Origin: an uncultured Nitrososphaerota archaeon
Lineage (GTDB): Archaea; Thermoproteota; Methanomethylicia; Nezhaarchaeales; B40-G2
Length of the DNA: 64,000 nt
NCBI GenBank assembly: GCA_964626365.1
Contig: CAZVDL010000002.1
Location: 19,966-83,965, forward strand
Reading direction: 5' to 3'
Shown: piece by piece, positions 23,344-43,729 of the stretch
How positions within the stretch are numbered: position 1 is the first letter of the stretch
Layout: the number at the start of each line of letters is the position of its first letter
Made by a program: the position numbers and the translations under genes
Notes under the pieces: generated by a model
The model's database searches: none
The model's input: only the letters and a program-made list of their open reading frames with translations
Told to the model about the DNA's origin: nothing

Positions 23344-23425
23344 TAATTAAATACCTAAATTTTACTGTAATTTAAATCATCACTTTCTCTTCTTCAAACT
23401 CTGAGGACCTGTTTTTAACTCTCTT

Positions 23426-25010: not shown

Positions 25011-26107
25011 GTTTTCTGGTTCCTCCTTCGCTGTGGAGGGCTTGTAGGTAGGTTAGGTTGTGTAGGGCTATGGCCTTGACGTTGTTTACCCTTATGTAGG
25101 TTATCTTGTTCCTCCTTTATTTCCTGGCAGGCTGGGCAGTTGCATGGGCATTCGTCGCAGTATAGGTGGTCGTCTAGGATGTAGTGTATGATTGGCTGGG
25201 TTCCTTGGTAGCAGGCTCGTTTCTGGGCGTTTATGAACCATGATAGGCTGGCGTGGGGGTATTCAGTGGCCCAGGTGTAGGGCCTTCCGTAGATGATGAG
25301 CTGGTAGCGTCCTCCGACGTAGTCTTCTAGGGCCTCTAAGGCGTAGGCTAGGAACTCCTTGAAGAGTCCGTCTCGCCAGAGCTCCCTGCTGGGGAGGGCG
25401 TACTTGGTTACGCTTAGCTGGCTTAGGGTCTTGACGCAGTACCTGACCTGTTCCCTGTTGGCGCCTTTAATTAGCCCTATGAGCTCGGCGTCAAGCTTAG
25501 CTAGCTCGGAGGTCATTTTAAGCGACCTTAGCAGGGACCTCCACGAGTATAGGCGAGGGTCGTCGATGTAGGTCTCTGAGTCAGGGTTGAAGAAGGCGTC
25601 TGGCTCTAAGCTCTTCAGGTAGCGCTGGTAGTCCTCTAAGCTTAGCCTAGCCATGGCCTCGTCGGGCATAACCGTGGACACTATGGTTTGGCCGTCAAGG
25701 TTTAGGTAGCCCCGTAGGCCCTCCGCCTCGGCTTGAGCAGAGAGCTCAGGGCTGACCATTAGGTCGTGGAGCTTAACTATAACTGTCCTTGGCTCAGCGA
25801 CCCACCTCCAGAACCAAGATCTCCGATCCCCGGCCTTAATGATCGGTATGAAGCGTGGAGTCTTCTTAAGCCTCTGCCTAGCCTTAGCTGTGGGTAGAGG
25901 TATGTCTAGCTTAACGCTTCTTGCGTCCACCTTTCTCGGGCACACCGAGGTGTAAATGCAGCCAGCGGCATTGATCCCTGTGTACCTCTTGCCTTTAAAA
26001 CAGGCTAGGACAAGGCATCCTCGGTTGTCGCAGCCTGAGCAGAGGGGGCCGTGGAGAGGGCACGACAAGCAGCTCCTACCGCATAGCCCTGCTTCGACCA
26101 TACTCAC
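24989..26107 (-). CDS. Cys-rich hypothetical protein (N-terminal CGRSCLSCPLHGPLCSGCDNRGC, C-terminal CDECPCNCPAC)
   Basis: A long ORF with host-like GC, and a low-complexity K/Q/P-rich tail where it runs into the low-GC segment. Confidence 0.4.
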   Translation of the reverse strand: MSMVEAGLCGRSCLSCPLHGPLCSGCDNRGCLVLACFKGKRYTGINAAGCIYTSVCPRKVDARSVKLDIPLPTAKARQRLKKTPRFIPIIKAGDRRSWFWRWVAEPRTVIVKLHDLMVSPELSAQAEAEGLRGYLNLDGQTIVSTVMPDEAMARLSLEDYQRYLKSLEPDAFFNPDSETYIDDPRLYSWRSLLRSLKMTSELAKLDAELIGLIKGANREQVRYCVKTLSQLSVTKYALPSRELWRDGLFKEFLAYALEALEDYVGGRYQLIIYGRPYTWATEYPHASLSWFINAQKRACYQGTQPIIHYILDDHLYCDECPCNCPACQEIKEEQDNLHKGKQRQGHSPTQPNLPTSPPQRRRNQKTWVQVTE

Positions 26108-26869: not shown

Positions 26870-26968
26870 TGCGGGGGGTGGGATTTGAACCCACGCCGGC
26901 CTTCGCCAACGGATACCCCAAGCCTGTTCTTGAGTCCGCCCCCTTGGACCTGGCTCGGGAACCCCCGC
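26870..26968 (-). tRNA. tRNA-Leu (anticodon CAA) with canonical ~14-nt intron after position 37 and long variable arm
   Basis: The reverse complement gives GCGGGGG...GCGGA-CUCAAG[intron]A-UCCGU, a 14-nt variable arm, GUGGG-UUCAAAU-CCCAC, CCCCCGC and discriminator A. Confidence 0.7.
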
Positions 26969-28384: not shown

Positions 28385-28475
28385 GGCGGCCGTGGTCTAG
28401 CCTGGTCCAGGACACAGAGCGCTGAGCGTGTAGGCCTTCCACGCCTGTTACCCGGGTTCGAATCCCGGCGGCCGC
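28385..28475 (+). tRNA. tRNA-Gly (anticodon UCC) with a 16-nt non-canonical intron inside the 5' strand of the anticodon stem
   Basis: The exons give GCGGCCG UG GUCU AGCCUGGUCCA GGAC A CAG[AGCGCUGAGCGUGUAG]GC CUUCCAC GCCUG UUAC CCGGG UUCGAAU CCCGG CGGCCGC A. The acceptor and T-arm are typical of archaeal tRNA-Gly. Confidence 0.7.
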
Positions 28476-28486
28476 ACTTCCTCCCT

Positions 28487-29279: not shown

Positions 29280-29666
29280 ATGGCTGAACTTAGGAGGATA
29301 TGTAAATGCAATGTATGCGGCAACATCGTGGTGGTCCTACACGCTGGAGTGGACAAGTTGGTATGCTGTGGTCAACCTATGCAGCTAATAGAGGAGAGAG
29401 GAGAGGGTGTTGAAGGATGGGAGAAACACGTACCTGTAGTGGGGCGGGTAGGTGACGAAGTTAAAGTTAAGGTGGGCAGTGTAGCTCACCCCATGGAGGA
29501 GGGGCACTTCATTGAGTGGGTAGAGCTAGAGACGAATGGACAAGCCTGTAAGGTTTTCCTTAAGCCGGGCATGGATCCTGAGGCAAGCTTTAGGGTAGGC
29601 GGAGGCAAGATGATCGTTAAAGCGTACTGCGATTTACACGGCTTATGGGTGAAGGAGTCAGGTTAA
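29280..29666 (+). CDS. dfx: Desulfoferrodoxin-type superoxide reductase (2Fe-SOR)
   Basis: It has an N-terminal desulforedoxin domain CKCNVCGN...CCGQPM and an SOR centre region with EKHVPVV and further ligands. Confidence 0.8.
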   Translation: MAELRRICKCNVCGNIVVVLHAGVDKLVCCGQPMQLIEERGEGVEGWEKHVPVVGRVGDEVKVKVGSVAHPMEEGHFIEWVELETNGQACKVFLKPGMDPEASFRVGGGKMIVKAYCDLHGLWVKESG

Positions 29667-29667
29667 G

Positions 29668-30252
29668 GTGGGGGTTCTCTCTATGGAGACCCTTAAAAAC
29701 CTCGTTAAGGCCTTCATAGGCGAGTCCCAGGCGAGAAACCGCTACGTGTTTTATGCGGGCATAGCTGAGAAGGAGGGTTACGTCCAAGTAGCTCAGGTGT
29801 TTCGCTTAACCGCCAGCAACGAGGAGGAACACGCTGAGACCCTATTCAAGCTCATACAGAGGCTTAGAGGGGACTTAAGAGAGCTCACCGTAGATGCAGC
29901 AGCTCCTTTAACGCTGAGTAATACCGCTGAGAACCTTAAGGCTGCAGCGGCCGGTGAACGCTACGAGTACTCTGAGATGTATCCTCACTTCGCTGAGGTA
30001 GCTGAGAAGGAGGGTTTCCTCGACGTAGCAGCTACGCTTAGAGCTATTGCCGAGGCTGAGAGGCACCACGAGGAAAGATACCTGAAGCTTCTAAGGAACA
30101 TAGAAGGAGGCACTGTGTGGAGAAAGGACCACGAAGTTTACTGGGTGTGTCTTAAATGTGGCTACGTACATTATGGAGAGGAGCCTCCTAAGAAATGTCC
30201 TTCCTGCGGCCACGATAGAAATTATTTCGCTGTTAAGTGTGAGGAATACTGA
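29668..30252 (+). CDS. rbr: Rubrerythrin (diiron ferritin-like domain + C-terminal rubredoxin-like CxxC...CxxC)
   Basis: It has E..H diiron motifs (EEEHAE, ERHHEE) and a C-terminal CLKCGY....CPSCGH. Confidence 0.85.
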   Translation: MGVLSMETLKNLVKAFIGESQARNRYVFYAGIAEKEGYVQVAQVFRLTASNEEEHAETLFKLIQRLRGDLRELTVDAAAPLTLSNTAENLKAAAAGERYEYSEMYPHFAEVAEKEGFLDVAATLRAIAEAERHHEERYLKLLRNIEGGTVWRKDHEVYWVCLKCGYVHYGEEPPKKCPSCGHDRNYFAVKCEEY

Positions 30253-30684
30253 CGGCATCCTCTTTTTTATTAGGTGGAGCTTAAACAGTAGCCCCATACC
30301 CATGTCGACGTTGACTTTGTTGAAAATCTGCTTAAGTAGCTGGATTTTCCAGTCCTCCTCAACGGCGCCATGATACGTACCTATCCACAGCCAGGTGATG
30401 ATATACAGGAAGGTGCAAGTAACGTAAAATCAAAGTATGCACCATACAGACTTAACTTAACGGTGAAAAAAATCAAGCGGTTAAGTGGTAAAGCCTTTTC
30501 CCGACAAATATCTTAGAACGCGCGTGACCATAAAGTTGCTACTTAATAAGTGTCCCCCTAAAGTTGCTTTTCTCTTCTGTGTACCCATAGCTAGAGATGC
30601 CTAGTAGATTGAGGGACTGAACAGCGACGTGGAAAGCTTTAACTATTAGGGGGCTTTTGGGGTGGCGAAGGATGAGGAGACTGG

Positions 30685-31164
30685 GTGCATAGCTTCATGT
30701 CATCTAGGATAACCCCCCTCCAGGTCTACAAACTGCTTCCCGGGATCAATTGTAAGAAGTGCGGGACGACATGCATGGGTTTCGCTGTTAAGCTTATCAA
30801 TAGGCAAGCTAAGATCGAAGACTGCCCTCCGTTGATCTCAGACCCCAAGTATGCTGATAAGCTAGCCGGTCTTAGGCAGCTTTTAGCCCCTCTCCTTACA
30901 GCTACTGAGACTCTCGTAACCATAGACCTGGAGAAATGTGTAGGATGCGGCAACTGTGTCGTTGCATGTCCAGCTAATGTGGCCATAGACCCTAAGGCTG
31001 GTAGAGGGCTTAATCCGTCGTCTAGCGAGGCTCTATGGCTAGTTGAGGACGGTAAAATCAAAGTGCTTCACCTTGAGAAGTGCAGAAGATACCCACCTCA
31101 TAGAATGAACTGCAACGTCTGCGAGATGGTATGTTATAGTGGGGCAATAAAGGTGGTAGCCTGA
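30685..31164 (+). CDS. Fe-S protein: N-terminal C-x2-C-x4-C-x16-C FeS domain + 2x[4Fe-4S] ferredoxin domain
   Basis: The motif CKKCGTTCMGFAVKLINRQAKIEDC is the same module as in ORF 558..1112. It is followed by CVGCGNCVVACP and CNVCEMVC. Confidence 0.6.
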   Translation: MHSFMSSRITPLQVYKLLPGINCKKCGTTCMGFAVKLINRQAKIEDCPPLISDPKYADKLAGLRQLLAPLLTATETLVTIDLEKCVGCGNCVVACPANVAIDPKAGRGLNPSSSEALWLVEDGKIKVLHLEKCRRYPPHRMNCNVCEMVCYSGAIKVVA

Positions 31165-32435
31165 TGGCGCTCCAGGCCACCATATGTACAGGCTGCTCAC
31201 TGCTATGCGACGACGTCGAGGTTGAGGTTAAGGATGGAGAGGTCCTTAAAGTGATGGCTGCGTGTAGCCATGGTGTTAAGAGGATGAAGGAGGTAGTTAA
31301 AGCAAGGCCTCTTAAGCCAGCCGTCGTTGATGGGGGTTCCATAAGGGAGCTTTCATTAGACGAGGCCCTCGAGAGGGCGTGTGAACTATTAAAGTCCTCT
31401 AGAAGTCCTCTAATTTATGGGGGCTCTTGTAGCTCGAACAGAGCTGTCGAGCTCATGATCAAGCTTGCTGAGAAACTTGGGGGGGTCTACGACGCCCCTA
31501 GTAGTGTTTGTCATCTAACACTTAACTTAGATTCCTCCTTACTAGAAGCCAGACTGGACGAAATACTTGAGGACGCTGATTTCATATTCTACTGGGCTTC
31601 GGATCCATCAGACACCCACCTCAGACACGCAAGCCGCTACGCTGTCTTCCCGAGGGGTAGGAGCGTCCCCATGGGTAGGGAGAGCAGGGTCGTAGCCGTG
31701 ATGGACGTCAAGGAGACAGGGACCATGAAGATAGCTCAGCACAAGCTCATCGTGAAGCCTGGAGAGGACGCTAAGCTCGCATCGGCCTTAGAAAGCCTTG
31801 TTCTAGGCGGCACCCTAGGCTTTGACCGTGTAGCGGGGGTTAGCCTCGAAGAGCTCTCATCGACGGCCAGAGATATGTCCAGGGCCAGCTACATAGCCAT
31901 CTTCGTCGGGAGGGGCCTGCTGTCTACGGACAAGCCTAAGGAAGCCATGGATTCAATAGCTAGGCTAGCTAAGGTCCTCCTCGGCTTGGGGAAGAAGGTC
32001 TCCATAATCCCCATGGCTGAACATGTGAACTCCATGGGTCAAGCGCTGATAACTAAGAAGCTTAAAGGAGCGCCCAGGGCTATTGATTTCTCCTCGCCTG
32101 AAGGTAGGGCCTCTCTCGAGGTCACAGCTAATTGGGCGCTTGAGCATAAAAAGGTCGACGCCGCTCTCATAATTAAAGGAGGGGGCCTTGAGGACCTCAC
32201 GTCCACAGCGATCGAGGAGCTGTCGCGCATACCCGCCATAGCCCTCGAGGAGGAAGAGTCTAAGGCCTTCCATGCTGCTACGGTCAGGGTACCCGCCGCG
32301 GTGACAGGCGTGGAGAGCGGCGGGGCTGTCACGAGAATGGATGGGGTTGAGGTGGAGTTGAAGCCTATTATGAGACCTCCTGACACCGTGGCCGTTGAGG
32401 AGGAGTTCCTTGACAGGTTAGTACAGATGCTCTAA
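31164..32435 (+). CDS. FwdB/FmdB-family molybdopterin-oxidoreductase-like subunit (formylmethanofuran dehydrogenase subunit B-like)
   Basis: Its N-terminus ICTGCSLLCDDVEV..AACSHG matches the FwdB C-x2-C-x3-C...C cluster region. Its ~423 aa size is typical of FwdB. Confidence 0.6.
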   Translation: MALQATICTGCSLLCDDVEVEVKDGEVLKVMAACSHGVKRMKEVVKARPLKPAVVDGGSIRELSLDEALERACELLKSSRSPLIYGGSCSSNRAVELMIKLAEKLGGVYDAPSSVCHLTLNLDSSLLEARLDEILEDADFIFYWASDPSDTHLRHASRYAVFPRGRSVPMGRESRVVAVMDVKETGTMKIAQHKLIVKPGEDAKLASALESLVLGGTLGFDRVAGVSLEELSSTARDMSRASYIAIFVGRGLLSTDKPKEAMDSIARLAKVLLGLGKKVSIIPMAEHVNSMGQALITKKLKGAPRAIDFSSPEGRASLEVTANWALEHKKVDAALIIKGGGLEDLTSTAIEELSRIPAIALEEEESKAFHAATVRVPAAVTGVESGGAVTRMDGVEVELKPIMRPPDTVAVEEEFLDRLVQML

Positions 32436-32437
32436 GG

Positions 32438-34822
32438 GTGGACTGTGTGGCTGAAGAGGCCGTCGGCAAGACCCTGGTGTTCATCTGCCACTGCGGCTCA
32501 AACATAGCGGGGGTCGTGGACGTAGCTGAGGTGGCGAGGGAACTTAAGCGTAGACATCCTGACGTGGCGGTCTACGATCATGAACACTGCTGTAGCGACG
32601 ACGGGCTGAGGAGGATAAGGGAGGCCATAGAGAAGGAGGGCGCTACAAGGCTTATCGTAGGATGTTGTACACCCTCGCTTCACGGCGAGCTGTTTAAGAG
32701 GGTAGCTGAGGAGGTAGGCCTCAATAGAGGGTTTGTGGAAATAGTCAACCTTAGAGAGCAGTGTTCATGGGTCCACTCCTACGATCCTCCTAGGGCCACG
32801 ATTAAGGCTGTCGACCTGCTCAGCATGGCTGTGGCCGCAGCCCCCCTAGCGAGGAATGCTAAGGTAGTCAAGATCCCCGTTGAGAGGGCGGTCCTCGTCA
32901 TAGGAGGAGGGGTTGCAGGGGTCACAGCAGCCTTAGCGCTGGCAGACATGGGCATCAAGGTGTACTTGGTTGAGAAGGATGGCTTCTTGGGAGGCCATAT
33001 GGCTAAGTGGGATAAAGTGTTCCCAACTCTTGACTGCAGTATCTGCGTGTTAGGTCCTCAACTCGCGAGGGCTTATAACCACCCCCTCATCACGGTGTAC
33101 ACGTTAAGTGAAGTCGTCGACGTTAAGGGGGCGCCGGGCAGCTACGTAGTCAAGGTGTTTAAGAGGGCTAGGTACGTTGACGAGAGGCTATGTAATGGTT
33201 GTAATAAGTGCCTTGAGGTTTGCCCTATTGAAGTGCCTAACGAGTACGACTATGGCATAGGCACTAGGGGGGCGATAGTTAAGCCATCGCATGAAGCAGT
33301 CCCGCCAGCGCCTTACATAGACATGGCTAAATGCATAGGGTGTATGTCCTGCCTAGGTGTATGCGACCCCAAGGCCATAAACTTCGACGACAAGGACTCG
33401 TACGTGGAGATAAAAGTAGGCGCCATAATAGTAGCTACAGGTTTCAAGCCCTTCGACCCAAGGGATCTTGACGAGTACCTCTACGGTAAATGCCTCAACG
33501 TGATCACAGGCCCTGAGTACGAGAGAATGCTTAACAACTCAGGGCCGACGAAGGGGAAGATAATTAGGCTATCGGATGGAGAGGAGCCTAAGAAAATAGC
33601 CTTCATACAGTGCGTGGGAAGTAGGTCAGACAGAATTGGAAGACCATACTGCAGTAGAGTATGCTGTATGAATGCCATTAAGCAGGCCATACAGACCAAG
33701 TTAGCATTACCGAACGCCGAGGTTACGATATTCTACACCGACATAAGAGCTTCGGGGAAAGCCTGCGAAGAGGCGTACCGAAGGGCTATGGAGATAGGGG
33801 TCCGCTTTGTGAGAGCCAGAGTGGGCCAGTTAAGGGCAGCGAGGGATGGTAAGGTTAAGGTGTTCTATGAGGACACGCTTTCATCGACAATGGTTGAGGA
33901 GGAGTTCGACTTGATCGTATTAAGTGTAGGCATGGAGGCTTCACCCGGCAATAGGGAGATCGCCAGGATGCTTGGCTTACAGCTAGGCGACTACGGCTTC
34001 TTAGCTGAGTACCACCTCAAGCTCAATCCCGCTGACACGTTCAGTAAGGGGATCTTCGTGGCGGGCGCCTGCACAGGGCCCAAGGACATAACCGAGTCGG
34101 TCATGCAGGCAGGCCTTGCAGCTGCTAGAGCTGCCGAGCTCATAGGTAAGGGCGAAGTGGAGGTCGAGGTCTACGCGCCGACCATAAACCCAGATATCTG
34201 TAAACGTTGCCTCGCCTGCGTCAGCGCTTGTCCCTTTGGTGCCCTGAGGGCCGAGAAGGGCAGGGTGATCGTCGACGAGTATGCATGCCGTGGCTGTGGA
34301 GCCTGTTATGCTGTGTGCCCCACCGGTGCCTTAACGCCACCTGGCGGGCTACTCAGCAATGAGCAAATATCGACGATGTTAAGGGATCTACTATCGGAGA
34401 AGAAGGAATATCCGCTAATAGTTGCCTTCATGTGTCAGTGGTGTGGTTACGCCGCCGCGGACAACGCGGGGATGAGTAAGATCCAGTACCCGACTAATAT
34501 AAGGATCATAAGAGTGCCATGTAGCGTTAGGTGGTCCCCCTCTCACATCCTAGAGGCCTTCAGCTTAGGGGCTGATGGCGTCCTCATTGTGGGCTGCCAC
34601 GAGCAGGACTGTCACTATAGGGTGGGCAGGGCGAAGGCCAACGAAAGGGCAAGAGCGTTGAAGGAGGTGCTTAAAGAGCTCGGGATCGATCCTCGTAGAC
34701 TTCGCATTGAAGGAGCCTCGGCCACGGAGGGGAAGAGGTTGGCCGAGCTAATAAGGGGGTTTGTGGAGGAGGTGGCCAGCTTAGGTCCAATAGGCTCAGA
34801 GGTGGCGGTGAGTGTCCAGTAA
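32438..34822 (+). CDS. hdrA: Heterodisulfide reductase subunit A (HdrA) fused to C-terminal MvhD-like domain
   Basis: It has an FAD motif VLVIGGGVAGVTAALALA, several CxxCxxCxxxCP ferredoxin motifs, and a C-terminal MvhD-like region (FMCQWCGYAAADNAG...VGCHEQDCHY). Confidence 0.8.
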   Translation: MDCVAEEAVGKTLVFICHCGSNIAGVVDVAEVARELKRRHPDVAVYDHEHCCSDDGLRRIREAIEKEGATRLIVGCCTPSLHGELFKRVAEEVGLNRGFVEIVNLREQCSWVHSYDPPRATIKAVDLLSMAVAAAPLARNAKVVKIPVERAVLVIGGGVAGVTAALALADMGIKVYLVEKDGFLGGHMAKWDKVFPTLDCSICVLGPQLARAYNHPLITVYTLSEVVDVKGAPGSYVVKVFKRARYVDERLCNGCNKCLEVCPIEVPNEYDYGIGTRGAIVKPSHEAVPPAPYIDMAKCIGCMSCLGVCDPKAINFDDKDSYVEIKVGAIIVATGFKPFDPRDLDEYLYGKCLNVITGPEYERMLNNSGPTKGKIIRLSDGEEPKKIAFIQCVGSRSDRIGRPYCSRVCCMNAIKQAIQTKLALPNAEVTIFYTDIRASGKACEEAYRRAMEIGVRFVRARVGQLRAARDGKVKVFYEDTLSSTMVEEEFDLIVLSVGMEASPGNREIARMLGLQLGDYGFLAEYHLKLNPADTFSKGIFVAGACTGPKDITESVMQAGLAAARAAELIGKGEVEVEVYAPTINPDICKRCLACVSACPFGALRAEKGRVIVDEYACRGCGACYAVCPTGALTPPGGLLSNEQISTMLRDLLSEKKEYPLIVAFMCQWCGYAAADNAGMSKIQYPTNIRIIRVPCSVRWSPSHILEAFSLGADGVLIVGCHEQDCHYRVGRAKANERARALKEVLKELGIDPRRLRIEGASATEGKRLAELIRGFVEEVASLGPIGSEVAVSVQ

Positions 34823-36128
34823 ACCATGCACTGAGCTGGTTTCAATCGAGGAGAACACGCTCACCTATAGGTGGGAGGGCCCTGTCCTAAGGAAGACGCT
34901 TACCCTCATCATCGATCGCTGCGTAGGCTGCGGTCTATGTGTAAGCCTATGCCCAACCCAGGCCATAGCCCTGGGCCCCGTCAAGGAAGTGGCGTCAGGC
35001 AGAATTGAAGCCCCTCTGATCACGATAGATGAAAGTAAATGCGTAGTCTGTCCCATATGCTCATCAGTCTGTCCAACACATGCATTGAAGGTGAACATTG
35101 AAGGTGGTAGAGAGTACCCGAGGATTAAGGGAAGTCTTTCACTTGATGAGGAAAAGTGCCTACCATGTCACCTCTGTGAAAGAGTATGTCCTAGAGAGGC
35201 TATTAAGGCTGAAGTTAAGGTAGTGAAAAAGGATGAACTAGTTAAGTACCATGAGGAGGTCGGTGAGCGGGCTGAGGGTAAAATAACGGTTAACCTTGAG
35301 AGGTGTTGTTACTGTGGGCTGTGCGAAGATCTATGTGAGGCAATCAAGATAGTATGGGTCAAGCCTGAGCCCCCGGGCTTTAAGCCAGGCCTTACAGTTC
35401 TCGTTAACGAGCAGTTATGTGACTATTGTGGGCTCTGTGAGAAGATATGCCCCGTCGATGCCATAAAGGTTGAGTGCTTCAAGGCTCCTCCAAGGGTCGT
35501 GGAGGGACCTAAAGTCGATGGGTCGATAAAGATCGATGAAGACCTCTGCGTGTATTGTGGCTTATGCGCGGCGATGTGCCCAGTGAAGGCTTTGAGCTGC
35601 GAGAAGCCCTTCAAGGGCGAGGTAGTAATGGTGAGACCTGAGAAGTGCGATCCCTCAGGATGCAAAAACTGTATCAATATATGCCCGACGAGGGCCGTTT
35701 TCGTCTCGAAGGCTAGAGGTCCCGATAAGGTGAAAGCTGCTGAGGAGGCGTGCATATTTTGTGGAGCCTGTGAAGAAGCATGCCCAGTCGAGGCGCTCAG
35801 CGTTAGAAGAAGGGAGGTGAGGGTTCAAGGTGGTGAAGAACCTTGGGAGGCGGGCTACGGTGACCTCTTTAAGAGGCTGATCGAGGGCTATAGGCCACCG
35901 AAGGAGGTGTACGCCAGGAAGGTGACAGTACCTGTCGAGGAGTACGTACCTCCTCCTCCCAGACCCATACCCCCAATACCTCCAGGCTTTAGTAAAGTCA
36001 AGGAGAGAGTTGAGGCTGCCTTAAAAGCCCTGAGCATGCCTAAGGCGAGAGTACTCCTAGAGAGGGGTGATGTTGAGAGGTTAAAGAACGAGATCAGGGG
36101 GTGGATGGAGGGGGCGCAAAGTGGCTGA
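34812..36128 (+). CDS. Polyferredoxin (about eight CxxCxxCxxxCP 4Fe-4S motifs; MvhB/FwdF-like)
   Basis: It has repeated CxxCxxCxxxCP motifs throughout and a Pro-rich C-terminal segment. Confidence 0.75.
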   Translation: MSSKPCTELVSIEENTLTYRWEGPVLRKTLTLIIDRCVGCGLCVSLCPTQAIALGPVKEVASGRIEAPLITIDESKCVVCPICSSVCPTHALKVNIEGGREYPRIKGSLSLDEEKCLPCHLCERVCPREAIKAEVKVVKKDELVKYHEEVGERAEGKITVNLERCCYCGLCEDLCEAIKIVWVKPEPPGFKPGLTVLVNEQLCDYCGLCEKICPVDAIKVECFKAPPRVVEGPKVDGSIKIDEDLCVYCGLCAAMCPVKALSCEKPFKGEVVMVRPEKCDPSGCKNCINICPTRAVFVSKARGPDKVKAAEEACIFCGACEEACPVEALSVRRREVRVQGGEEPWEAGYGDLFKRLIEGYRPPKEVYARKVTVPVEEYVPPPPRPIPPIPPGFSKVKERVEAALKALSMPKARVLLERGDVERLKNEIRGWMEGAQSG

Positions 36129-36597
36129 TGTTGAAGAAGCGGTCCAAGTAGCCCTCCTGGAAGGGCGTCGATGTATACAGTGCGGCGCATGTAGCTCAGC
36201 CTGTCCTTCAGCTAGAGCTACTATGAGCTTCAGCCCTCGCAGGATATTATTAGCTCTGTTGACGGGGAGGAGGAGCGCTGTAGGTGACGACCAGTGGCTC
36301 TGTCTACTATGCCATACCTGCGAGGCTATATGTCCAAATGAGGTGCGCATAGTGAATATCGTCGAGGCGTTGAGGAGGGCTTCTGTTAGGAAGGGCGTTG
36401 AGGAGGGGGCTCTTGACGCCTACTTTGAGGCCCTTAACAACATGTTGAGTATGGGGGTTATCGTACCCCCTACAAGTAGCGAGGCCCAGAGTTTTGGCGT
36501 CGCAAAAGGCCTAAGTCCACGTCCATTACCGGCCGAGATTAAGGCTGAGCTTGAGGAGGTTTTCGGCAAGCTTAAGGAGGTGAAGGGGGCTGGCTGA
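36121..36597 (+). CDS. hdrC: Heterodisulfide reductase subunit C-like (2x[4Fe-4S])
   Basis: It has CIQCGACSSACP and CLLCHTCEAICP, at 158 aa. Confidence 0.7.
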   Translation: MADVEEAVQVALLEGRRCIQCGACSSACPSARATMSFSPRRILLALLTGRRSAVGDDQWLCLLCHTCEAICPNEVRIVNIVEALRRASVRKGVEEGALDAYFEALNNMLSMGVIVPPTSSEAQSFGVAKGLSPRPLPAEIKAELEEVFGKLKEVKGAG

Positions 36598-37426
36598 GAA
36601 GCTAACTCTCTTTCCCGGCTGTATAGCCACCAGCATCTACCCCGGCGTGGCTTACTCATCAATTAAGGTGTTGAGGGGGCTAGGCTTTGAGGTCTCAGCT
36701 CCCGAGGTCACATTGTGCTGTGGTATGCCTTTCGAAATTGCAGGCCTACTAGATAGGGAGGGCCTTGAAAGGATCGCTATCCATAGCCTTAAGGCGGCTT
36801 CCAAGGAGGGCACCATGGTGACGCCGTGTAACGGTTGCTACAGAGCGCTCAACTTAGCGTTGAGGGATGAGGTAAAATGTCTACACGTAGCCGAGGTGCT
36901 TTGGCGCGCTAGAGACGAGCTTAAGAAGGCTGCGGGGGACGCGTTGAGGGGGGTCAAGGTAGCTGTCCACGTAGGCTGCCATTATGCTTATGCCATGAGG
37001 GAGAGGGCGCTGAAGGGGGTTGAAGGGGAGGACATACTCGAGGATATAGCTCTCTCAATGGGCGCTGACATTGTAAGCTACGACGAGAAGAAGCTATGCT
37101 GCGGAGCGACGGCGATGAAGTGGCCCCGAATCATGGAGGCCTTAAACCCTATTACTAAGCTCAAGGTGGAGAGCCTCCTTAACTCAGGAGCTGAAGCAGT
37201 ACTGGTAATGTGCACGGCATGTCAGCTGGCGATAGACAGGGCTCAATATCAAATGAAGAACCTGGGCGAGCTAGATAAAACCATACCCGTACTCCACGTG
37301 TCTCAGCTTGTAGGCTTAGCCTTAGGCCTACACCCCATAGACGACCTTGGCCTACACCTACATCTAATCCGCCCTGAAAGGATCGCCCCCTCCTCTCCTA
37401 GGGAACTCTTAAGCGATCAGCGTTAA
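36590..37426 (+). CDS. hdrB: Heterodisulfide reductase subunit B-like (two CCG cysteine-rich domains)
   Basis: The conserved N-terminal FPGC...YPG motif lies upstream of the GTG picked by the ORF track at 36647. The frame is open from 36584 with no ATG, GTG or TTG, so I place the start at CTG 36590 or another non-canonical codon. CCG and CNGC motifs follow. Confidence 0.65.
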   Translation: MAEKLTLFPGCIATSIYPGVAYSSIKVLRGLGFEVSAPEVTLCCGMPFEIAGLLDREGLERIAIHSLKAASKEGTMVTPCNGCYRALNLALRDEVKCLHVAEVLWRARDELKKAAGDALRGVKVAVHVGCHYAYAMRERALKGVEGEDILEDIALSMGADIVSYDEKKLCCGATAMKWPRIMEALNPITKLKVESLLNSGAEAVLVMCTACQLAIDRAQYQMKNLGELDKTIPVLHVSQLVGLALGLHPIDDLGLHLHLIRPERIAPSSPRELLSDQR

Positions 37427-37736: not shown

Positions 37737-38441
37737 ATGCTTAACTGCAAAGAGGTCATAGCCTGTAAGGCCCTAGCCGACGATGCTAGAAGGGCTATAC
37801 TTGAATTATTGTTCTGCTCTGGACCCTTAAGCATCGATGAGATTGCAAGAAGTACCGGGTTGAGGAGGGTTACTGTTCAGTATCATCTCAGGATACTGGA
37901 GCAAGCAGGGCTAGTAAGGCCTATGCTTGAGGTTAAGTCGACGCCAGGAAGACCAAGGAAATTGTATGAAGTTACTAAAGAGTACTTAAATCTAAGCTTT
38001 CCTAAAAGACAGTATGAGCTCCTTCTCAAGCTCCTCATGAATAGCGTAGTGAAAAAGCGTGGCTACGACGAGCTCGTGTCCTTAATGGAGGCTGCTGGAA
38101 GGGAGCTTGGTCAAAACATACTATTTAAGGTTAAATTAAACCATAACATAACTAAATGGGATATTGACACCTTCTGCAAGTACATATTACCTGAGCTAAG
38201 AGAATTAGGCTTTAGTCCCTTAGTGACTGGTGACTGTGTTAATGAGGTAGTAGTCAAATTAACTAACTGCATTTTCAGAGAATTAATAGCTGAGTACTCT
38301 GAAGCACTATGCGTTTGGCTAAGGGCTCTTGTTTACTCTTTAATGGAACCCTTTAAAGACTTTGAAATTAAATTAGGAAAAAGCGGTGAGACCTCGGAGT
38401 TTGAGGACTGCTTAACGATTATAAAGGCCAAGGCCAAATGA
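37737..38441 (+). CDS. ArsR-family HTH transcriptional regulator with C-terminal extension
   Basis: Its N-terminal winged HTH is LSIDEIARSTGLRRVTVQYHLRILEQAGLV. It lies between the Hdr cluster and the molybdoenzyme cluster. Confidence 0.55.
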   Translation: MLNCKEVIACKALADDARRAILELLFCSGPLSIDEIARSTGLRRVTVQYHLRILEQAGLVRPMLEVKSTPGRPRKLYEVTKEYLNLSFPKRQYELLLKLLMNSVVKKRGYDELVSLMEAAGRELGQNILFKVKLNHNITKWDIDTFCKYILPELRELGFSPLVTGDCVNEVVVKLTNCIFRELIAEYSEALCVWLRALVYSLMEPFKDFEIKLGKSGETSEFEDCLTIIKAKAK

Positions 38442-38646
38442 AGCCTCAGAATTAATTGGAAGTCCGACGAGTTTTCTATAACTGATGAGGACTCATTACG
38501 CGTGGAGTTAACTATGGACTTAGGTAGTATATCGACTTGACCATAACATGTAGCTGCTCTTTCCGTCGAGAAGGCCTTGATATCTTCCGAAACTTTTAAA
38601 ACTACTATTTTTATAAACTTTTTCATCACGTGATAGACCCCCTTAG

Positions 38647-39630
38647 GTGAAGGGAATGCCTACTCCAAGTGGAGACGAGCCTGAGAGGAGGACTTTCCTT
38701 AAAGCTATCGCGGGAGGAGCGATTGCTTCACTTCTTCCTGCTTCAGAGGCGCTTCAACATAACGGGCAAGCCGACCGCTCAGACTATTACGCCATTCTAT
38801 ATGATTCAACGAAGTGCATAGGGTGTAATTCATGTGTCATTGCTTGCAAATTATGGAACGGTAAACTGGGAGGTAGATTCCCCTTTCTTGTGGAGGACTT
38901 GAAAGGTCCCCAGGAACCTCCCGAGAAGCCAAGGCCTGACGTGCATCACTTTATGGTCATAGACAGGTTTTACAATCTTAGACACTACGACGGCAGAGCG
39001 GTATTCATGAGAAGATCGTGTATGCACTGCTTGGAACCACCCTGTATGTACGTATGCCCAACCAAGGCTATATACCAGTATAAAGGCATCAACTTAACGG
39101 ACTTCTCAAGGTGCTTTGGTTGTCAATACTGCGTAGTTGCTTGTCCCTATAAAGCTAGAGCCTTCTATGACGAATGGGGTGTCCCGGTTAAATGCTGGAT
39201 GTGTTTAGATAGAGTAGAAGAAGGCCTAGCTCCAGCCTGCGTGAGTGTATGTCCAGTGCGCGCTCTAACCTTTGGCAGCCGGAATGAGATTTTAATGAAA
39301 GTACGCGAGAGGGTCAAGGAGCTTCAAGGCGAGGGCAGAAGAGTTTACGTATGGGGGGCCACTGAAGAGGAGCTAGGTTCTCAAGGTGAAATCTCTGTTA
39401 CGCGTGAGTTTGGGACTAACGTTATAGTGATATCAGACGTCCCCTTTGAAGAAGTAGATTACCCAGAGCCTGAGATGCTAGTACCAGCACCGAAAGGTTA
39501 TCCTAAAATGCTCATGGAGCGTGGGGGCTTAGCCATTTTTGGTGGTGGCGCTTTCATCTTTTTAGCCTTCGCTCTATGGCGTAGGAGTAGAATCATCAAG
39601 GCTAAGATCAAGGAAATACCGAGGGGTTAA
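38647..39630 (+). CDS. Tat-exported 4x[4Fe-4S] ferredoxin subunit (NrfC/PsrB-like) with C-terminal TM helix
   Basis: It has a twin-arginine signal ERRTFLKAIAGGAIASLL, four Cys clusters (CIGCNSCVIAC, CMHCLEPPCMYVC, CFGCQYCVVAC, CWMC...C) and a C-terminal hydrophobic helix. Confidence 0.7.
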   Translation: MKGMPTPSGDEPERRTFLKAIAGGAIASLLPASEALQHNGQADRSDYYAILYDSTKCIGCNSCVIACKLWNGKLGGRFPFLVEDLKGPQEPPEKPRPDVHHFMVIDRFYNLRHYDGRAVFMRRSCMHCLEPPCMYVCPTKAIYQYKGINLTDFSRCFGCQYCVVACPYKARAFYDEWGVPVKCWMCLDRVEEGLAPACVSVCPVRALTFGSRNEILMKVRERVKELQGEGRRVYVWGATEEELGSQGEISVTREFGTNVIVISDVPFEEVDYPEPEMLVPAPKGYPKMLMERGGLAIFGGGAFIFLAFALWRRSRIIKAKIKEIPRG

Positions 39631-39633
39631 GAA

Positions 39634-40569
39634 ATGGAGCTCCCATGGGGCCCGGTGATAGCGGCGGCACTATACTTTGGTGGCTTAGGCGGCGGCTCGT
39701 TTATAGTAGCCTCAACCACCAGCTTCATCTCAGGCGAGGAATTTAGGGAGATAATGAAGTTTGGCTCCTACATAGGCATACTGGCCACGGCATTATGTGG
39801 ATTATGTTTATCTATACATGCAGGGCACCCAGAACGCCTCCTCTTCATGTACAGTAACCCAACGTCGATGATAACCTTCGGCACATGCGTCATAACGGCT
39901 ATACTGCCTATAGGCCTAATATATGCCACTTTTCTACCACCGGACTCACTTCCGTGGCTAAAATCCCTCTTTCCATGGTCGGTGTACGTGAAGCCTAGAA
40001 AGTTATTTGAGCTCATACTGTTCATATTAGGGTCAGGGCTAGCAGGCTACACAGGTTTCGTGCTAGGTATAGCTTGGGCTGAACCTTTCTGGGAGACGCC
40101 GTTGATAACGGCGCTATTCTTTATATCAGCGGTCTCAACTGGGTTGATGGCTATAGGTCTATGCCTAGCCATACTAAGACTAGTACAGGTGACCGAGGAG
40201 TCCCAGAAGCTATTCGTGGAAATGATGCATAGGCTTGATGTAGCCGACGGTTACATGTTAGCCCTGGAAGGCGGCATAGCCTTACTATACCTATATGTGA
40301 TGCTAAACGGAACATCAGGCATAGCTAAGCAGTCGGCACAATTACTTTTGACGGGGACCTTAGCCCCGCTATTCTGGGTAGGCTTCTTCCTAATAGGTAT
40401 AATCATACCAATAATCATAGAGTTGTTCCTAGCATGGAAAGGAAGAACCGCTAAGTATCTGAAGTTCTACGCGCCGCTGATGATAGTAGCCTCGTCCTTA
40501 GTGCTGGTAGGGGCTTTCTACATGAGATACTGCTTCTTAGTAGCGGGCCAGATACCCCTTTTATCCTAA
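39634..40569 (+). CDS. NrfD/PsrC-family integral membrane quinol-interacting subunit
   Basis: It has about eight predicted TM helices, and its size and position after the Tat-FeS subunit match NrfD/PsrC. Confidence 0.7.
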   Translation: MELPWGPVIAAALYFGGLGGGSFIVASTTSFISGEEFREIMKFGSYIGILATALCGLCLSIHAGHPERLLFMYSNPTSMITFGTCVITAILPIGLIYATFLPPDSLPWLKSLFPWSVYVKPRKLFELILFILGSGLAGYTGFVLGIAWAEPFWETPLITALFFISAVSTGLMAIGLCLAILRLVQVTEESQKLFVEMMHRLDVADGYMLALEGGIALLYLYVMLNGTSGIAKQSAQLLLTGTLAPLFWVGFFLIGIIIPIIIELFLAWKGRTAKYLKFYAPLMIVASSLVLVGAFYMRYCFLVAGQIPLLS

Positions 40570-40667
40570 TCCACACCCGCCATTACTGCTCTTTCCACGA
40601 TTCAGTTCCATGAATGCTTATAAATTTAATAAAAATAGAATTTTTCTGCTAAAGGGGATGAAGAGGG

Positions 40668-41453
40668 ATGTACGCTATACTCTACGACTCCTCCCTGTGC
40701 ATAGGCTGCAGGGCCTGTCAAGTTGCCTGTAAGAGGTGGAATGGCTTAGAAGCTGACGAAACCGAGGGCATGGACTTTGGGAACCCTCAGAGCCTAACAT
40801 CCAATACTTGGAACGTAGTTAAGTACGTATGGGTCGAAGAAGAAAACGGCCCTAAACTACATTTCGTGGTTAATAGGTGTATGCATTGCTTAGAGCCTGT
40901 ATGCGAGGCAGTATGTCCCGTTCGAGCCATAGTCAAAGATAGGGAGACCGGGGCAGTAGTTACTCACCCAGAGCGCTGTGTAGGCTGTCTAGCCTGCGTT
41001 GAGGCATGTCCATTCTCTGTACCTAAGTTTGGCAGGGGTGTTGGGACTAGGAAGTGCATAATGTGCATTGATAGACTTCGCTTAGGACTTGAACCAGCGT
41101 GCGTCTCAACCTGTCCAACAGGGGCCCTCAAGTTCGGTGAGCGTAGTGAGATAATTAAGATGGCTGAGGAAAGGGCGAAGGAAATAGGCGGCTACGTGTA
41201 CGGCGTTCACGAGGCTGGAGGCACCTCGGTAATAATGGTCCTCACAGCTCCTCCTGAGAAGCTGGGGCTGCCTACACCTATGAAGGCGCCCTATGTCAAG
41301 TCTAAGGTCAGCGGGGCTGATACGCTCCTGAAGGAGGCCACGAGCATGTTGACCGGCAGTGGAGTGGGTGAGAGCCTTGTGCTTGCTCTCGGAGCCGCCA
41401 TAGTAGGGGGTGTCATAGCGAGAAGAATGAAGATCTCTAGGAAGGAGGGATGA
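40668..41453 (+). CDS. 4x[4Fe-4S] electron-transfer subunit (PsrB/DmsB-like) with C-terminal TM anchor, no signal peptide
   Basis: It has CIGCRACQVAC, CMHCLEPVCEAVCP, CVGCLACVEACP and CIMC...CVSTCP, with a hydrophobic C-terminus. Confidence 0.7.
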   Translation: MYAILYDSSLCIGCRACQVACKRWNGLEADETEGMDFGNPQSLTSNTWNVVKYVWVEEENGPKLHFVVNRCMHCLEPVCEAVCPVRAIVKDRETGAVVTHPERCVGCLACVEACPFSVPKFGRGVGTRKCIMCIDRLRLGLEPACVSTCPTGALKFGERSEIIKMAEERAKEIGGYVYGVHEAGGTSVIMVLTAPPEKLGLPTPMKAPYVKSKVSGADTLLKEATSMLTGSGVGESLVLALGAAIVGGVIARRMKISRKEG

Positions 41454-41456
41454 AGG

Positions 41457-43712
41457 ATGACTCGCTTAACTAGGAGAGAATTCCTTAAAACTATGGCTTC
41501 GGCGGGTCTATTGGCAAGCCTAGGCTTAAGTACACTTCAACCCATAGAGGTCGAGGCGCACGACTATTACTGGGACCGCCTTTATAGAAGCTCCTTAAAG
41601 TATGGTGTATGCGGGATTTGTGGCTCAGCTTGTGCCTTTAAAGCCTACGTAGAAGGTGACAGTTACCTAACCGACTTAAGAGGTAACATCAACGATTTAG
41701 AGAGTCAAGGCAAATTATGTGCTAAAGGTAACGCTGGCATATGGTACGCATACGACCCAGATAGGCTCAAGTACCCGTTAAAGAGGACAAACCCCGAGAA
41801 AGGCATCGATGTAGATCCGAAGTGGGTTAGAATATCTTGGAAGGAAGCCTTAGATTTAGTAGCCAACAAGTTCAAGGAAATTAAGGAGAAATACGGCGGT
41901 CATACGATAATATTCATGGGACACCCACCATATAAGCCCTGGCTTGTGAGGTTAGCACATGCCCTTGGCAGCCCTAATTACATAAGTCACCTAGATACTT
42001 GTGTAATAACCAATGTCTTAGTACGCAAATATACGATGTTCACGCCGACGTTTGTTCATGATGTAAAGAATGCTCGGTACATCCTGTGCTTTGGCTGGGA
42101 TCAACCAGCCAAAGGCAAGATCGTCTATACCCATCAATTCAGCGAGGCTGTTAAGCAAGGAGCTAAAATAGTGGTGTTAAACCCGCTATACACGACGACG
42201 GTGGCTAAAGCGACAGAGTGGATACCTATTAAGCCAGGTACAGATCTCGCCTTCGCCTTAGCTATGATGAACGTCATAATCAATGAAGGGCTGTACGATG
42301 AGGACTACGTAGCTAAGTACACTAACTTCAAGGATTATGAGGATAAGATAGTATCTTGGGTCAAACCGTATACGCCTGAGTGGGCTGAAGGTATCACTGA
42401 GGTGCCGGCCGAAACTATAAGGAAGGTAGCAAGAGAGTTTGCGACTATCAAACCCTCCATGGCCTTAACTCATAAGAGAGACGCGGCGGGTCCCAATTAC
42501 ACTAATAGCTGGAAGCTAGCCCACGCGATAGTTATACTAAACGCTTTAGTGGGTGCCATCGATAATGTTGGAGGAGTGATACTCCCTAGGACCTTTAAAG
42601 TACCTGACGTAAATAAGATCTATCCTCCTCCACCCCCTCCAAGCGTCAAGGAGAAGGCTGACGGTAAACATCTGCTTCCTCTCCTCGACAAGCTGGGCCA
42701 TGGCATATTCTCAACGTTGGTGGAAAACATCTTAAGGGAGAAGCCCTACCCTGTTAAAGCCGCGCTAATATGCAACTATAACGTACTAGCCTTCCCTAAC
42801 CCTAAGAGGGCCGTAGAAGCCTTTAAGAAGCTAGAGTTCATAGCGGTCGTCGACATATTACCTAGCGAAATGGCCTTACTTGCAGACGTGGTTTTACCCG
42901 ACACGACCTACTGGGAGACTTCAGGTTTCTCTCCACGTAAGTATAATGCTCTTTACCCGCAAATAGCGGTGAAGGACGCTGTCATCAAGCCTATGTACGA
43001 TGTCAAGAGCCACAACTGGATCATTTACCAGATAGGCAAGAGAGTGGCTCCAGAGTACTTTAACTTTAGCTTAAGCGAGCTAAAGAAGGAGATGTTAAGG
43101 AGAGCGGGTATAGCTAACTCTTTCGATGAATTAAAGGAGAAAGCGGTAGACGGTATATACACTCTTCCTGGGGCCTCCTTCAAACCCTTAGAGAAGCTTG
43201 AAGCCTTCGCTAAGCAGGGGAAGAAGATACAGATATATGCTGAGATCTTCGAGAAGTACGGCTATGATCCGCTACCTTCATGGGAGCCTAAGAGGGAAGA
43301 GAAAAGCCTGGAATACCCATACTACTTAATAGTGACTAGGTCGGCTGTGCATAGGCATGGTAAGACGACCAACATACCTTGGCTGCATGAGATATGCCCT
43401 GAAAACTGCGTCTTAATACATCCAGAGGAAGCTGAGAGGTTGGGCATCAAAGACATGGACTGGGTCTACGTGGAGTCACGATACGGAAGGATTAAGATTA
43501 AGGCGCTACGCTGGCCTGGAATCAGGAAAGATTGCGTATGCGTCCCCCACGGCTTTGGACACTGGTCAAGGTTCCTCAGGGTAGCTTACGGATGGGGGGC
43601 TAACGACGGCGACCTCATACCCACTCAAACCATTGAGGATGTGTTGAAGAGGAGAGATCCAACAGCCAACGCGTGTATGTCAGATGTCTGCGTTAAGGTG
43701 TATAAAGCCTAA
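41457..43712 (+). CDS. Tat-exported molybdopterin (bis-MGD) oxidoreductase catalytic subunit, Psr/Phs/Sre-like
   Basis: It has a twin-arginine signal TRREFLKTMASAGLLASLGL and an N-terminal 4Fe-4S motif CGICGSACAF....C. At 751 aa its size fits the polysulfide/thiosulfate reductase group. Confidence 0.75.
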   Translation: MTRLTRREFLKTMASAGLLASLGLSTLQPIEVEAHDYYWDRLYRSSLKYGVCGICGSACAFKAYVEGDSYLTDLRGNINDLESQGKLCAKGNAGIWYAYDPDRLKYPLKRTNPEKGIDVDPKWVRISWKEALDLVANKFKEIKEKYGGHTIIFMGHPPYKPWLVRLAHALGSPNYISHLDTCVITNVLVRKYTMFTPTFVHDVKNARYILCFGWDQPAKGKIVYTHQFSEAVKQGAKIVVLNPLYTTTVAKATEWIPIKPGTDLAFALAMMNVIINEGLYDEDYVAKYTNFKDYEDKIVSWVKPYTPEWAEGITEVPAETIRKVAREFATIKPSMALTHKRDAAGPNYTNSWKLAHAIVILNALVGAIDNVGGVILPRTFKVPDVNKIYPPPPPPSVKEKADGKHLLPLLDKLGHGIFSTLVENILREKPYPVKAALICNYNVLAFPNPKRAVEAFKKLEFIAVVDILPSEMALLADVVLPDTTYWETSGFSPRKYNALYPQIAVKDAVIKPMYDVKSHNWIIYQIGKRVAPEYFNFSLSELKKEMLRRAGIANSFDELKEKAVDGIYTLPGASFKPLEKLEAFAKQGKKIQIYAEIFEKYGYDPLPSWEPKREEKSLEYPYYLIVTRSAVHRHGKTTNIPWLHEICPENCVLIHPEEAERLGIKDMDWVYVESRYGRIKIKALRWPGIRKDCVCVPHGFGHWSRFLRVAYGWGANDGDLIPTQTIEDVLKRRDPTANACMSDVCVKVYKA

Positions 43713-43729
43713 AAACTCTCTTTTTTACC

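Follow-up and report, generated by a model that had tools for sequence, protein, structure and literature searches.

Supercomplexes that join heterodisulfide reductase (Hdr) to formylmethanofuran dehydrogenase (Fmd or Fwd) form the energetic core of CO2-reducing methanogenesis, and within Fwd the subunits FwdF and FwdG carry electrons to FwdB. Solved supercomplexes show HdrA connected to Fmd by the polyferredoxins FmdF and MvhB. Direct binding to HdrA is a feature of class II FmdF, which has been reported to be the sister group of TACK FmdF (PMC13580544); the same work explicitly called for Hdr complexes from TACK archaea. The Methanosarcina acetivorans HdrA2B2C2 complex uses F420H2 directly according to the available text of PMC5296606. 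A cluster of Fwd and Hdr genes was described in 2025 for the cultured methanogen Ca. Methanonezhaarchaeum fastidiosum YNP3N (FwdBD with HdrABC, FwdF, and FwdG, named “Fwd-Hdr”), for which the available text of PMC12700198 proposes, on a genomic and transcriptomic basis, that formate oxidation drives heterodisulfide and ferredoxin reduction. We found no literature on this cluster beyond that paper, and the cluster type is already known and not unprecedented. Here, we analyzed a six-gene representative at positions 30685–37426 of a 64,000-nucleotide stretch of contig CAZVDL010000002.1 from an uncultured hot-sediment archaeon (“the window” refers to this whole stretch), in which the genes for a FwdG-like iron-sulfur (FeS) protein, a FwdB-like subunit, HdrA with a fused MvhD domain, a FwdF-like polyferredoxin, HdrC, and HdrB follow one another. 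We put at roughly three in four the probability that their products form an Hdr-type electron-bifurcating complex hard-wired to the FwdB-like subunit via the FwdF- and FwdG-like FeS proteins, with HdrBC reducing a disulfide.

Compared with the methanogen Fdh-, Mvh-, or Elp-Hdr-Fmd(Fwd) supercomplexes (7BKB, 8RVU, 9SW6, and 9SFI; PMC12350162, PMC13580544, and PMC13518236), the window encodes homologs of HdrA/B/C, MvhD, FmdF/FwdF, FmdG/FwdG, and FmdB/FwdB, with a similar wiring logic that places the polyferredoxin between HdrA and the FwdB-type site. The likeness to Fwd-Hdr supercomplexes seen in the initial annotation is thus borne out by three Fwd-type subunits (G-, B-, and F-like) beside HdrA/MvhD, HdrC, and HdrB. 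The differences are that the window has neither FwdA/FwdC (the formate-condensing part), nor FwdD, nor a hydrogenase, Fdh, or Elp donor module, and that MvhD is fused to HdrA, the genes stand in a single operon, and the Arg288 of FwdB is lost. As that annotation had also stated, none of FwdA, FwdC, FwdD, or MvhA/G was found among the scanned window open reading frames (ORFs) of at least 100 aa, a scan that left out the ORF at 46995–47408 (−) and a few ORFs overlapping annotated genes. With M. acetivorans HdrA2B2C2 (available text of PMC5296606) and “type Ia” HdrA (PMC12054007), the locus shares the C-terminal MvhD fusion and an end-to-end match to the HdrA2 model NF040770 (positions 4–777 of 777), but its score of 978.8 bits lies below the model cut-off of 1100 and its hdrA is co-operonic with FwdB-, FwdG-, and FwdF-like genes and hdrCB. 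The YNP3N cluster has the same gene set and order as the window, as matched by the description in the available text of PMC12700198 and via the Nezhaarchaeales/Nezhaarchaeota loci L012, L018, and L020, whose HdrA and FwdB-like proteins are 68–70% and 39–41% identical, respectively, to those of the window. The two differ in that YNP3N-type clusters carry a FwdD-like gene while the window does not, in the active site (SVCH...PMAEH in the window versus SICR...PMAEN in the Nezhaarchaeales type), in an hdrB without a canonical start codon, and in the host, which belongs to a different sub-lineage. The substitution of Arg288 is absent from the discussion in the available text of PMC12700198.

The domain calls of the initial annotation (i.e., FwdB-like, HdrA with MvhD, a polyferredoxin of about eight clusters, HdrC, HdrB, and a small FeS protein) agreed with both profiles and solved chains, and the matches of the six predicted proteins are too strong for chance. 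HdrA has the architecture of HdrA2 or “type Ia” proteins (an N-terminal Cys domain, a FAD/thioredoxin-reductase-like domain, four CxxCxxCxxxC motifs, and MvhD), with the FlpD/MvhD [2Fe-2S] domain (PF02662, 2.4e-48) at residues 661–783 (window 34418–34786). It matched 8rvu_a (1.6e-186) and 5odc_A (4.4e-186) in the PDB, at 625 bits for these solved HdrA chains, as well as MvhD chains at 1e-30 to 1e-36. Its residues E362 and K415 align to E356 and K409 of 5odc_A, which have been tied to flavin-based electron bifurcation (PMC12054007), and this conservation makes the originally proposed bifurcating complex plausible. The HdrC-like protein scored 71.6 bits against TIGR03290 (cut-off 160) and 72.6 bits against NF041890, and its two CxxCxxCxxxCP motifs correspond to two [4Fe-4S] clusters; the HdrB-like protein has two CCG domains.

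Between the Hdr subunits and the FwdB-like protein, the two FeS proteins would provide the wiring. The smaller one combines a PF04060 (RnfB/CFeSP-type) N-terminal part (6.7e-13) with Fer4; its residues 9–54 match the N-termini of RnfB and corrinoid FeS protein (CFeSP) in the PDB, and its C-terminal part is a FwdG/FmdG-like 2x[4Fe-4S] ferredoxin, in which residues 82–133 match 9sfi_U, 7bkb_L (FmdG), and 5t5i_G (FwdG) at 3e-9 to 9e-8. Its 12 Cys fit three [4Fe-4S] clusters, ATG 30697 is an alternative start, and the gene is found upstream of every FwdB-like relative (57–89% identity). A second small PF04060 protein (184 aa, window 558–1112), with the domain at its C-terminal end, adjoins the topoisomerase VI genes. 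The polyferredoxin carries seven CxxCxxCxxxC motifs and one CX4CxxCxxxC motif, i.e., eight [4Fe-4S] clusters, and matched the FwdF model NF042909 (249 bits) and 5t5i_F (3.3e-55, query residues 35–351 versus chain residues 29–346). Its C-terminal tail of ~100 aa (residues ~330–438, window ~35799–36125) is Cys-free and Pro-rich (…PPPPRPIPPIPPGF…), is missing from solved FwdF, and is present in all relatives, whose polyferredoxins are 427–438 aa long; this tail may be a docking element.

The FwdB-like protein does match FwdB profiles, as initially proposed, with TIGR03129 at 2.9e-93 (312.7 bits, positions 2–419 of 421; below the equivalog cut-off of 327.8) and, over the full length, the solved FwdB chains 8rja_B (1e-58) and 5t5i_B (4.5e-56). 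Its AlphaFold2 model (predicted local distance difference test [pLDDT] score 87, predicted template modeling [TM] score 0.88) superposed on FwdB 5t5m_B with a TM score of 0.92 and a root-mean-square deviation of 2.3 Å, as compared to a TM score of 0.64 for pterin-free FhcB, and the N-terminal [4Fe-4S] Cys residues C8, C11, C15, and C34 are conserved, in keeping with the FwdB fold. In FwdB, Cys118, His119, and Arg288 are catalytically important (PMC6926001). We compared these columns in a 99-homolog alignment, with the Cys118/His119/Arg288 numbering counted along the 5t5i_B alignment (M. wolfeii numbering). The window protein retains the metal-ligand Cys116 and His117 (codons 31509–31514), which align to C118 and H119 of 5t5i_B, whereas Arg288 is replaced by Ala285, followed by Glu286 (codons 32016–32021), within a local alignment without gaps (IPMAEHVN in the window versus IPMRGHYN in 5t5i_B). 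Canonical FwdB, a class defined here by SSVCHGP and PMRGH, is represented by 36 sequences of the alignment; the window protein and 22 relatives form a monophyletic group in a neighbor-joining tree, and all 23 members keep the Cys and read P-M/L/V-A-E, i.e., Arg288 is changed to Ala and Gly289 to an invariant Glu. The position of His119 is more variable, being His in the subgroup of the window and Arg in the Nezhaarchaeales type; a third subgroup has either His or Gln. Since the replaced Arg288 is among the residues named as catalytic, the clade probably does not consist of standard CO2 reductases or formate dehydrogenases. This clade-wide replacement of Arg288 by Ala with Cys118 kept is new here.

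Other features of the FwdB-like protein indicate that it is maintained. It keeps 55 of 55 clade-invariant residues, and purifying selection was found on all genes tested, with ratios of non-synonymous to synonymous substitution (dN/dS) of 0.05–0.20 against the closest relative, L006 (FwdB-like 0.16, HdrB 0.16, and HdrC 0.20; the polyferredoxin, fragmented in L006, was left out). A relaxation of selection on the FwdB-like gene following FwdD loss is not supported by identity ratios or dN/dS. The pLDDT falls below 50 only in residues 153–173 (window 31620–31682), which are the most conserved segment of the clade (an invariant THLRHASRY...PRG...GRESR loop), and this combination suggests that the modeled loop may be a partner- or cofactor-binding surface. 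Retention of canonical FwdB-conserved columns was 55% for the clade versus 67% for pterin-free Fhc-like sequences, a measure that does not discriminate for pterin binding; the clade retains H152 and H155, which the Fhc-like sequences have lost.

In a scan of one genome per GTDB species, the FwdB-like clade was detected in 12 species from five or more Thermoproteota lineages, labelled Methanomethylicia, Nezhaarchaeota/Nezhaarchaeales, Culexmicrobium, Baldrarchaeota, Bathyarchaeia, and “Nitrososphaerota” or “Thermoprotei” metagenome-assembled genomes (MAGs). The order FeS protein, FwdB-like, HdrA(+MvhD), polyferredoxin is kept in every locus spanning the region, and the full order with HdrC-HdrB is also found in L003, L005, L007, L009, L012, L014, L018, and L020. 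After the FwdD-like gene come either hdrC-hdrB or, in the Methanomethylicia/Culex/Bathyarchaeia type, genes for carbon monoxide dehydrogenase/acetyl-CoA synthase (CODH/ACS). Loci L008, L011, L013, L015, and L017 have no adjacent hdrCB and abut the CODH/ACS genes cdhE/D/C/B/A on the opposite strand (~14.9–21 kb in L008), and HdrA and MvhD are separate genes in L008 and L013. Neither fwdA nor fwdC adjoins the cluster in the window or in the 12 related clusters. On a 3-Mb archaeal contig (L023, 7514–9615), a more distant Arg-less FwdB-like protein (SSFCQG...PMVGHYN type) is encoded together with a PF04060 FeS protein and a FwdD-like protein in a stand-alone three-gene module without hdr genes, which suggests that Arg-less FwdB-like proteins may be enzymes and not mere scaffolds. 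The FwdB-like protein of the window itself was also found in NCBI (DRJ97_02635, from a “Thermoprotei archaeon” MAG) and, identical, on ENA ERZ27227321 k141_722939, a 157.5-kb contig that matches the window at 99.9% identity over the 8 kb surrounding the cluster.

Besides the arginine, the lineage of the window has lost a gene. A FwdD-like gene (PF01568, ~120 aa, opposite strand) lies between the polyferredoxin gene and hdrC or the CODH/ACS genes in every related locus spanning this position except the window and L006, in which the polyferredoxin gene and hdrC overlap at the same place. When the six frames of the window were searched with tblastn and a 12-sequence profile hidden Markov model, the only match to FwdD-like sequence was the C-terminal domain of an unrelated 751-aa enzyme. 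A profile search of a 5.8-billion protein set returned 19 FwdD-like proteins, none of them with DRJ97 or B6U99 locus tags, the MAGs being incomplete and the prefilter word-based. In two metagenome scans for further members of the FwdD-less sub-lineage, only two extra loci were found, both of the 59% type. The FwdD subunit is critical for capping and coordinating tungstopterin (PMC6926001). Loss of the FwdD-like gene from both the lineage of the window and its nearest relative, with the FwdB-like gene still under purifying selection, is new here. As to the molybdopterin-dependent reaction of the initial annotation, Arg288 is Ala and the FwdD-like cap gene is missing, and the proposal is therefore uncertain.

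The best reading of these data is, in our view, that the FwdB-like subunit is a hard-wired third redox port of an HdrA2-type complex. Such a complex would be soluble, with a core of HdrA carrying FAD, [4Fe-4S] clusters, and the [2Fe-2S] cluster of the fused MvhD. Its two-electron donor would come from outside the operon: F420H2 might act at HdrA, as it does in Methanosarcina HdrA2B2C2, or a separate module might dock on MvhD. The high-potential electron would be passed by HdrC to HdrB, where two non-cubane [4Fe-4S] clusters would reduce a disulfide, which would be the heterodisulfide of coenzymes M and B (CoM-S-S-CoB) if the host makes it. The low-potential electron would run from HdrA through the FwdF-like polyferredoxin and the FwdG-like FeS protein to the [4Fe-4S] cluster and the Cys-ligated site of the FwdB-like subunit, along the F to G to B route known from solved Hdr-Fmd supercomplexes. 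A low-potential substrate would be reduced there by the FwdB-like subunit, and with Arg288 missing this substrate need not be CO2. Placing the FwdB-like subunit at the low-potential acceptor end is tentative and stands, in our estimate, somewhat below an even chance. We favor it because the retained Fwd subunits are exactly those of the F to G to B path, and because polyferredoxins in the solved supercomplexes join the low-potential HdrA exit to Fmd, the directly HdrA-binding class II FmdF being reported as sister to TACK FmdF.

Several points weigh against this reading. The operon encodes no donor module, and a self-contained alternative, in which the FwdB-like subunit feeds electrons in via MvhD as proposed in PMC12700198, is equally economical. 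Scores against the HdrB, HdrC, HdrA2, and FwdB models all lie below the equivalog cut-offs, so the substrates may differ from those of the methanogen enzymes. The metallopterin site may be altered or absent, because Arg288 is Ala and a FwdD-like gene was found neither in the window nor in the database for the MAG. Finally, the physical association of the six products and their activity are predictions from the genes.

The strongest competitor is that same YNP3N proposal, in which the FwdB-like subunit (with FwdD where present) would oxidize formate or a related low-potential substrate, and electrons would pass via the FwdG- and FwdF-like proteins to MvhD and the HdrA flavin, to be bifurcated to the HdrBC disulfide site and free ferredoxin. 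The operon would then be self-sufficient in that it supplies the donor, the bifurcating flavin, and the high-potential site. The FwdB-like protein conserves Cys116 and His117, and in the Mvh-, Fdh-, and Elp-Hdr structures electrons from donor modules canonically enter through MvhD (PMC12350162). We nevertheless regard this direction of flow as somewhat unlikely, given that Arg288, whose role is described in PMC6926001, is Ala in 23 of 23 clade members, that FwdD is absent in the window lineage, that we found no structure in which FwdF or FwdG docks on MvhD, and that, in the available text of PMC12700198, YNP3N showed no growth with formate supplied from outside and has no formate transporter. 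It is also doubtful, though conceivable, that the clade carries a remodelled metallopterin site for a reaction other than CO2/formate interconversion, wired to HdrA2 and devoid of the FwdD cap in the window lineage, which is probably related to methanogenic Nezhaarchaeia; the enzyme would then represent a repurposed Hdr-Fmd remnant with new chemistry.

A further alternative is that the FwdB-like protein has lost its metallopterin and serves as a structural or [4Fe-4S] transfer subunit in the manner of ElpA or FhcB, within an HdrA2B2C2-type disulfide reductase dependent on F420H2 or ferredoxin. Precedents exist in ElpA (PMC12350162), FhcB (PMC6926001), and the Cys-less “unknown Molybdop” clade beside type II hdrA (PMC12054007), which are MopB-family, Hdr/Fwd-associated proteins that have likewise lost the formate dehydrogenase catalytic residues. 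That the window and L006 cleanly lack the FwdD-like gene at its place ahead of hdrC and after the polyferredoxin gene, when every other relative has it, would fit such a scaffold, as would the lack of the corresponding MAGs among the 19 database matches, the capping and coordinating role of FwdD (PMC6926001), and the loss of Arg288. We consider it improbable, since in those precedents either the ligand Cys, the pterin-binding region, or the N-terminal cluster is missing, whereas the window protein keeps Cys, His, the [4Fe-4S] motif, and the full FwdB fold in a near-gapless alignment to FwdB with no ElpA- or FhcB-like truncation. Its clade-invariant residues are intact, its dN/dS is no worse than that of HdrB and HdrC, the L023 module suggests that such proteins are enzymes in their own right, and FwdD may be encoded elsewhere in the incomplete MAG. 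Least of all do we expect a canonical formylmethanofuran dehydrogenase subunit B that makes formyl-methanofuran from CO2 with FwdA, FwdC, and FwdD encoded elsewhere, for although the best family and structure matches are FwdB and some sources annotate relatives as such, the score is below the TIGR03129 cut-off, the Arg-less paralogs form a clade apart from the 36 canonical sequences, the gene is never beside fwdA or fwdC in the 12 species, and YNP3N encodes FwdABCD, with a fused FwdBD, in a cluster of its own (available text of PMC12700198).

The hdrB gene as first listed, from GTG 36647, is too short at its 5' end. Its frame is open from 36584 (in-frame stop at 36581–36583), and codons 36602–36646 encode LTLFPGCIATSIYPG, the conserved N-terminal segment of HdrB, which supplies the leading Cys of the first CX31CCX35CXXC motif. 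With this extension, the alignment to the solved HdrB chain 9sfi_C begins at chain residue 5, the score of the protein rises from 126.6 to 146.5 bits for TIGR03288 (cut-off 345) and from 57.6 to 69.8 bits for CCG, and the two CX31-39CCX35-36CXXC motifs have their full complement of ten Cys (C11, C43, C44, C80, and C83; C130, C170, C171, C208, and C211). The full set of ten is obtained only if translation starts upstream of 36620, and the frame has no ATG, GTG, or TTG between the stop at 36581–36583 and GTG 36647. The best Shine-Dalgarno match of the operon, GGAGGTG-N7, stands ahead of CTG 36590, and none stands ahead of GTG 36647. In L006, GGAGGTG-N7-ACG (~9670–9730) likewise places a near-cognate codon seven codons before the conserved Phe of the FPGC motif, as in the window (36574–36650). 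The 5' segments of the two loci differ by 7 synonymous versus 1 non-synonymous changes, and this dominance of synonymous sites argues that the segment is translated. Because the GGAGGTG-N7 spacing is shared with L006 and absent at GTG 36647, hdrB probably starts at CTG 36590, overlapping the hdrC stop; such a non-canonical start is new here. A +1 frameshift at the hdrC stop (TGA 36595–36597), which would yield an HdrC-HdrB fusion, is less likely, as a near-cognate codon follows GGAGGTG-N7 at the same position in the window and L006 and a slippery P-site codon is absent. Two further assemblies, which share 99.9% identity with the window, have exactly the same hdrC/hdrB junction. Frameshifted hdr genes, a possible flaw considered in the initial annotation, can be dismissed with all ORFs being full length against profiles and solved chains and the junction being the same in those assemblies.

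The six ORFs (Table 1) are co-directional, with coordinates that agree with the ORF list, and neighboring genes overlap or are 2 bases apart, the exception being the hdrC-hdrB gap under the originally called hdrB start. A GGTGG/GGAGG element lies 6–7 nt before each internal gene start. The six genes thus appear to form one operon, and from their content and synteny we infer a single complex. The upstream region contains a T-run (~30262–30270) past the rubrerythrin gene and an A/T-rich TATA-like element (~30636–30650). Desulfoferrodoxin and rubrerythrin genes lie directly upstream of the operon (window 29280–30252) and point to an oxygen-sensitive anaerobe.

Table 1. Positions in the window of the cluster genes and of the region preceding them
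Feature	Position	Strand	Length	Basis
FeS subunit (FwdG-like)	30685..31164	+	159 aa	PF04060 + Fer4
FwdB-like subunit	31164..32435	+	423 aa	TIGR03129, solved FwdB chains
HdrA with fused MvhD	32438..34822	+	794 aa	NF040770, PF02662
FwdF-like polyferredoxin	34812..36128	+	438 aa	NF042909, 5t5i_F
HdrC-like subunit	36121..36597	+	158 aa	TIGR03290, NF041890
HdrB-like subunit, 5' end revised	36590..37426	+	278 aa from CTG 36590	listed ORF 36647-37426 = 259 aa
Upstream intergenic region, presumed operon promoter region	30253..30684	+		read from sequence

Directly downstream (window 37737–44377), an ArsR-type regulator is followed by a cluster for a membrane-bound oxidoreductase of the molybdenum/tungsten bis-pyranopterin guanine dinucleotide (bis-PGD) type, comprising a four-cluster FeS protein, NrfD, a second FeS protein, a 751-aa catalytic subunit (best match thiosulfate reductase PhsA, 420 bits, below cut-off), and a TorD/NarJ-type chaperone; from this cluster, the organism should make bis-PGD enzymes. 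A DUF166 (DfsP-like) gene is also nearby (45304–46323), and two copies occur near the related cluster in L008 (4986–6908), beside an F420-ligase gene. Farther away, two amidohydrolase genes (6710–8002 and 9811–11160, encoding PF01979 proteins of 430–449 aa) lie ~20 kb off in an unrelated context. A tRNA-Gln (23271–23343) is followed by three genes on the − strand (to 26107), one of them LAGLIDADG_3 homing-endonuclease-like (24105–25010), and GC content falls to ~0.48 over 22–26 kb; the region 23271–26107 may be an integrated element. Long or odd tRNA matches at 26870–26968 (−, 99 nt), 28386–28477 (+, 92 nt, with a 4-base anticodon by ARAGORN), and 52858–52969 (+, 112 nt) are probably intron-containing archaeal tRNAs.

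The host was taken by the initial annotation for a non-methanogenic member of Thermoproteales. The topoisomerase VI subunit B (TopoVI-B; 2366–3937, −) is 82% identical to that of “Geothermarchaeota ex4572_27”, 80–81% and 69% identical to sequences labelled Nezhaarchaeota/Nezhaarchaeales, ~60% to Methanomethylicia, and ~55% to Bathyarchaeia, and no Thermoproteales name was among its named top matches. By this similarity, a Thermoproteales host is rejected and the sequence places the host as a relative of Nezhaarchaeales. An actin-family (crenactin-like) gene (56677–57948, −) fits a Thermoproteota host. According to the available text of PMC12700198, the class of Nezhaarchaeales comprises the methanogenic Methanonezhaarchaeaceae and two sister families without mcr. 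No methanogenesis genes were found among the scanned window ORFs, and the non-methanogenic label is not supported from the window alone.

Overall, the cluster is a compact, single-operon TACK version of the Hdr-Fmd supercomplexes, and it occurs in methanogenic lineages as well as in ones that are apparently not methanogenic. With the catalytic arginine lost throughout the clade, the published proposal of formate oxidation is called into question, and the variant lacking FwdD provides a natural way to test whether the FwdB-type subunit is catalytic at all. Should the substrate prove to be new, the complex would add a donor or acceptor reaction to flavin-based electron bifurcation and would show how methanogenesis enzymes are reused once methanogenesis has been lost.

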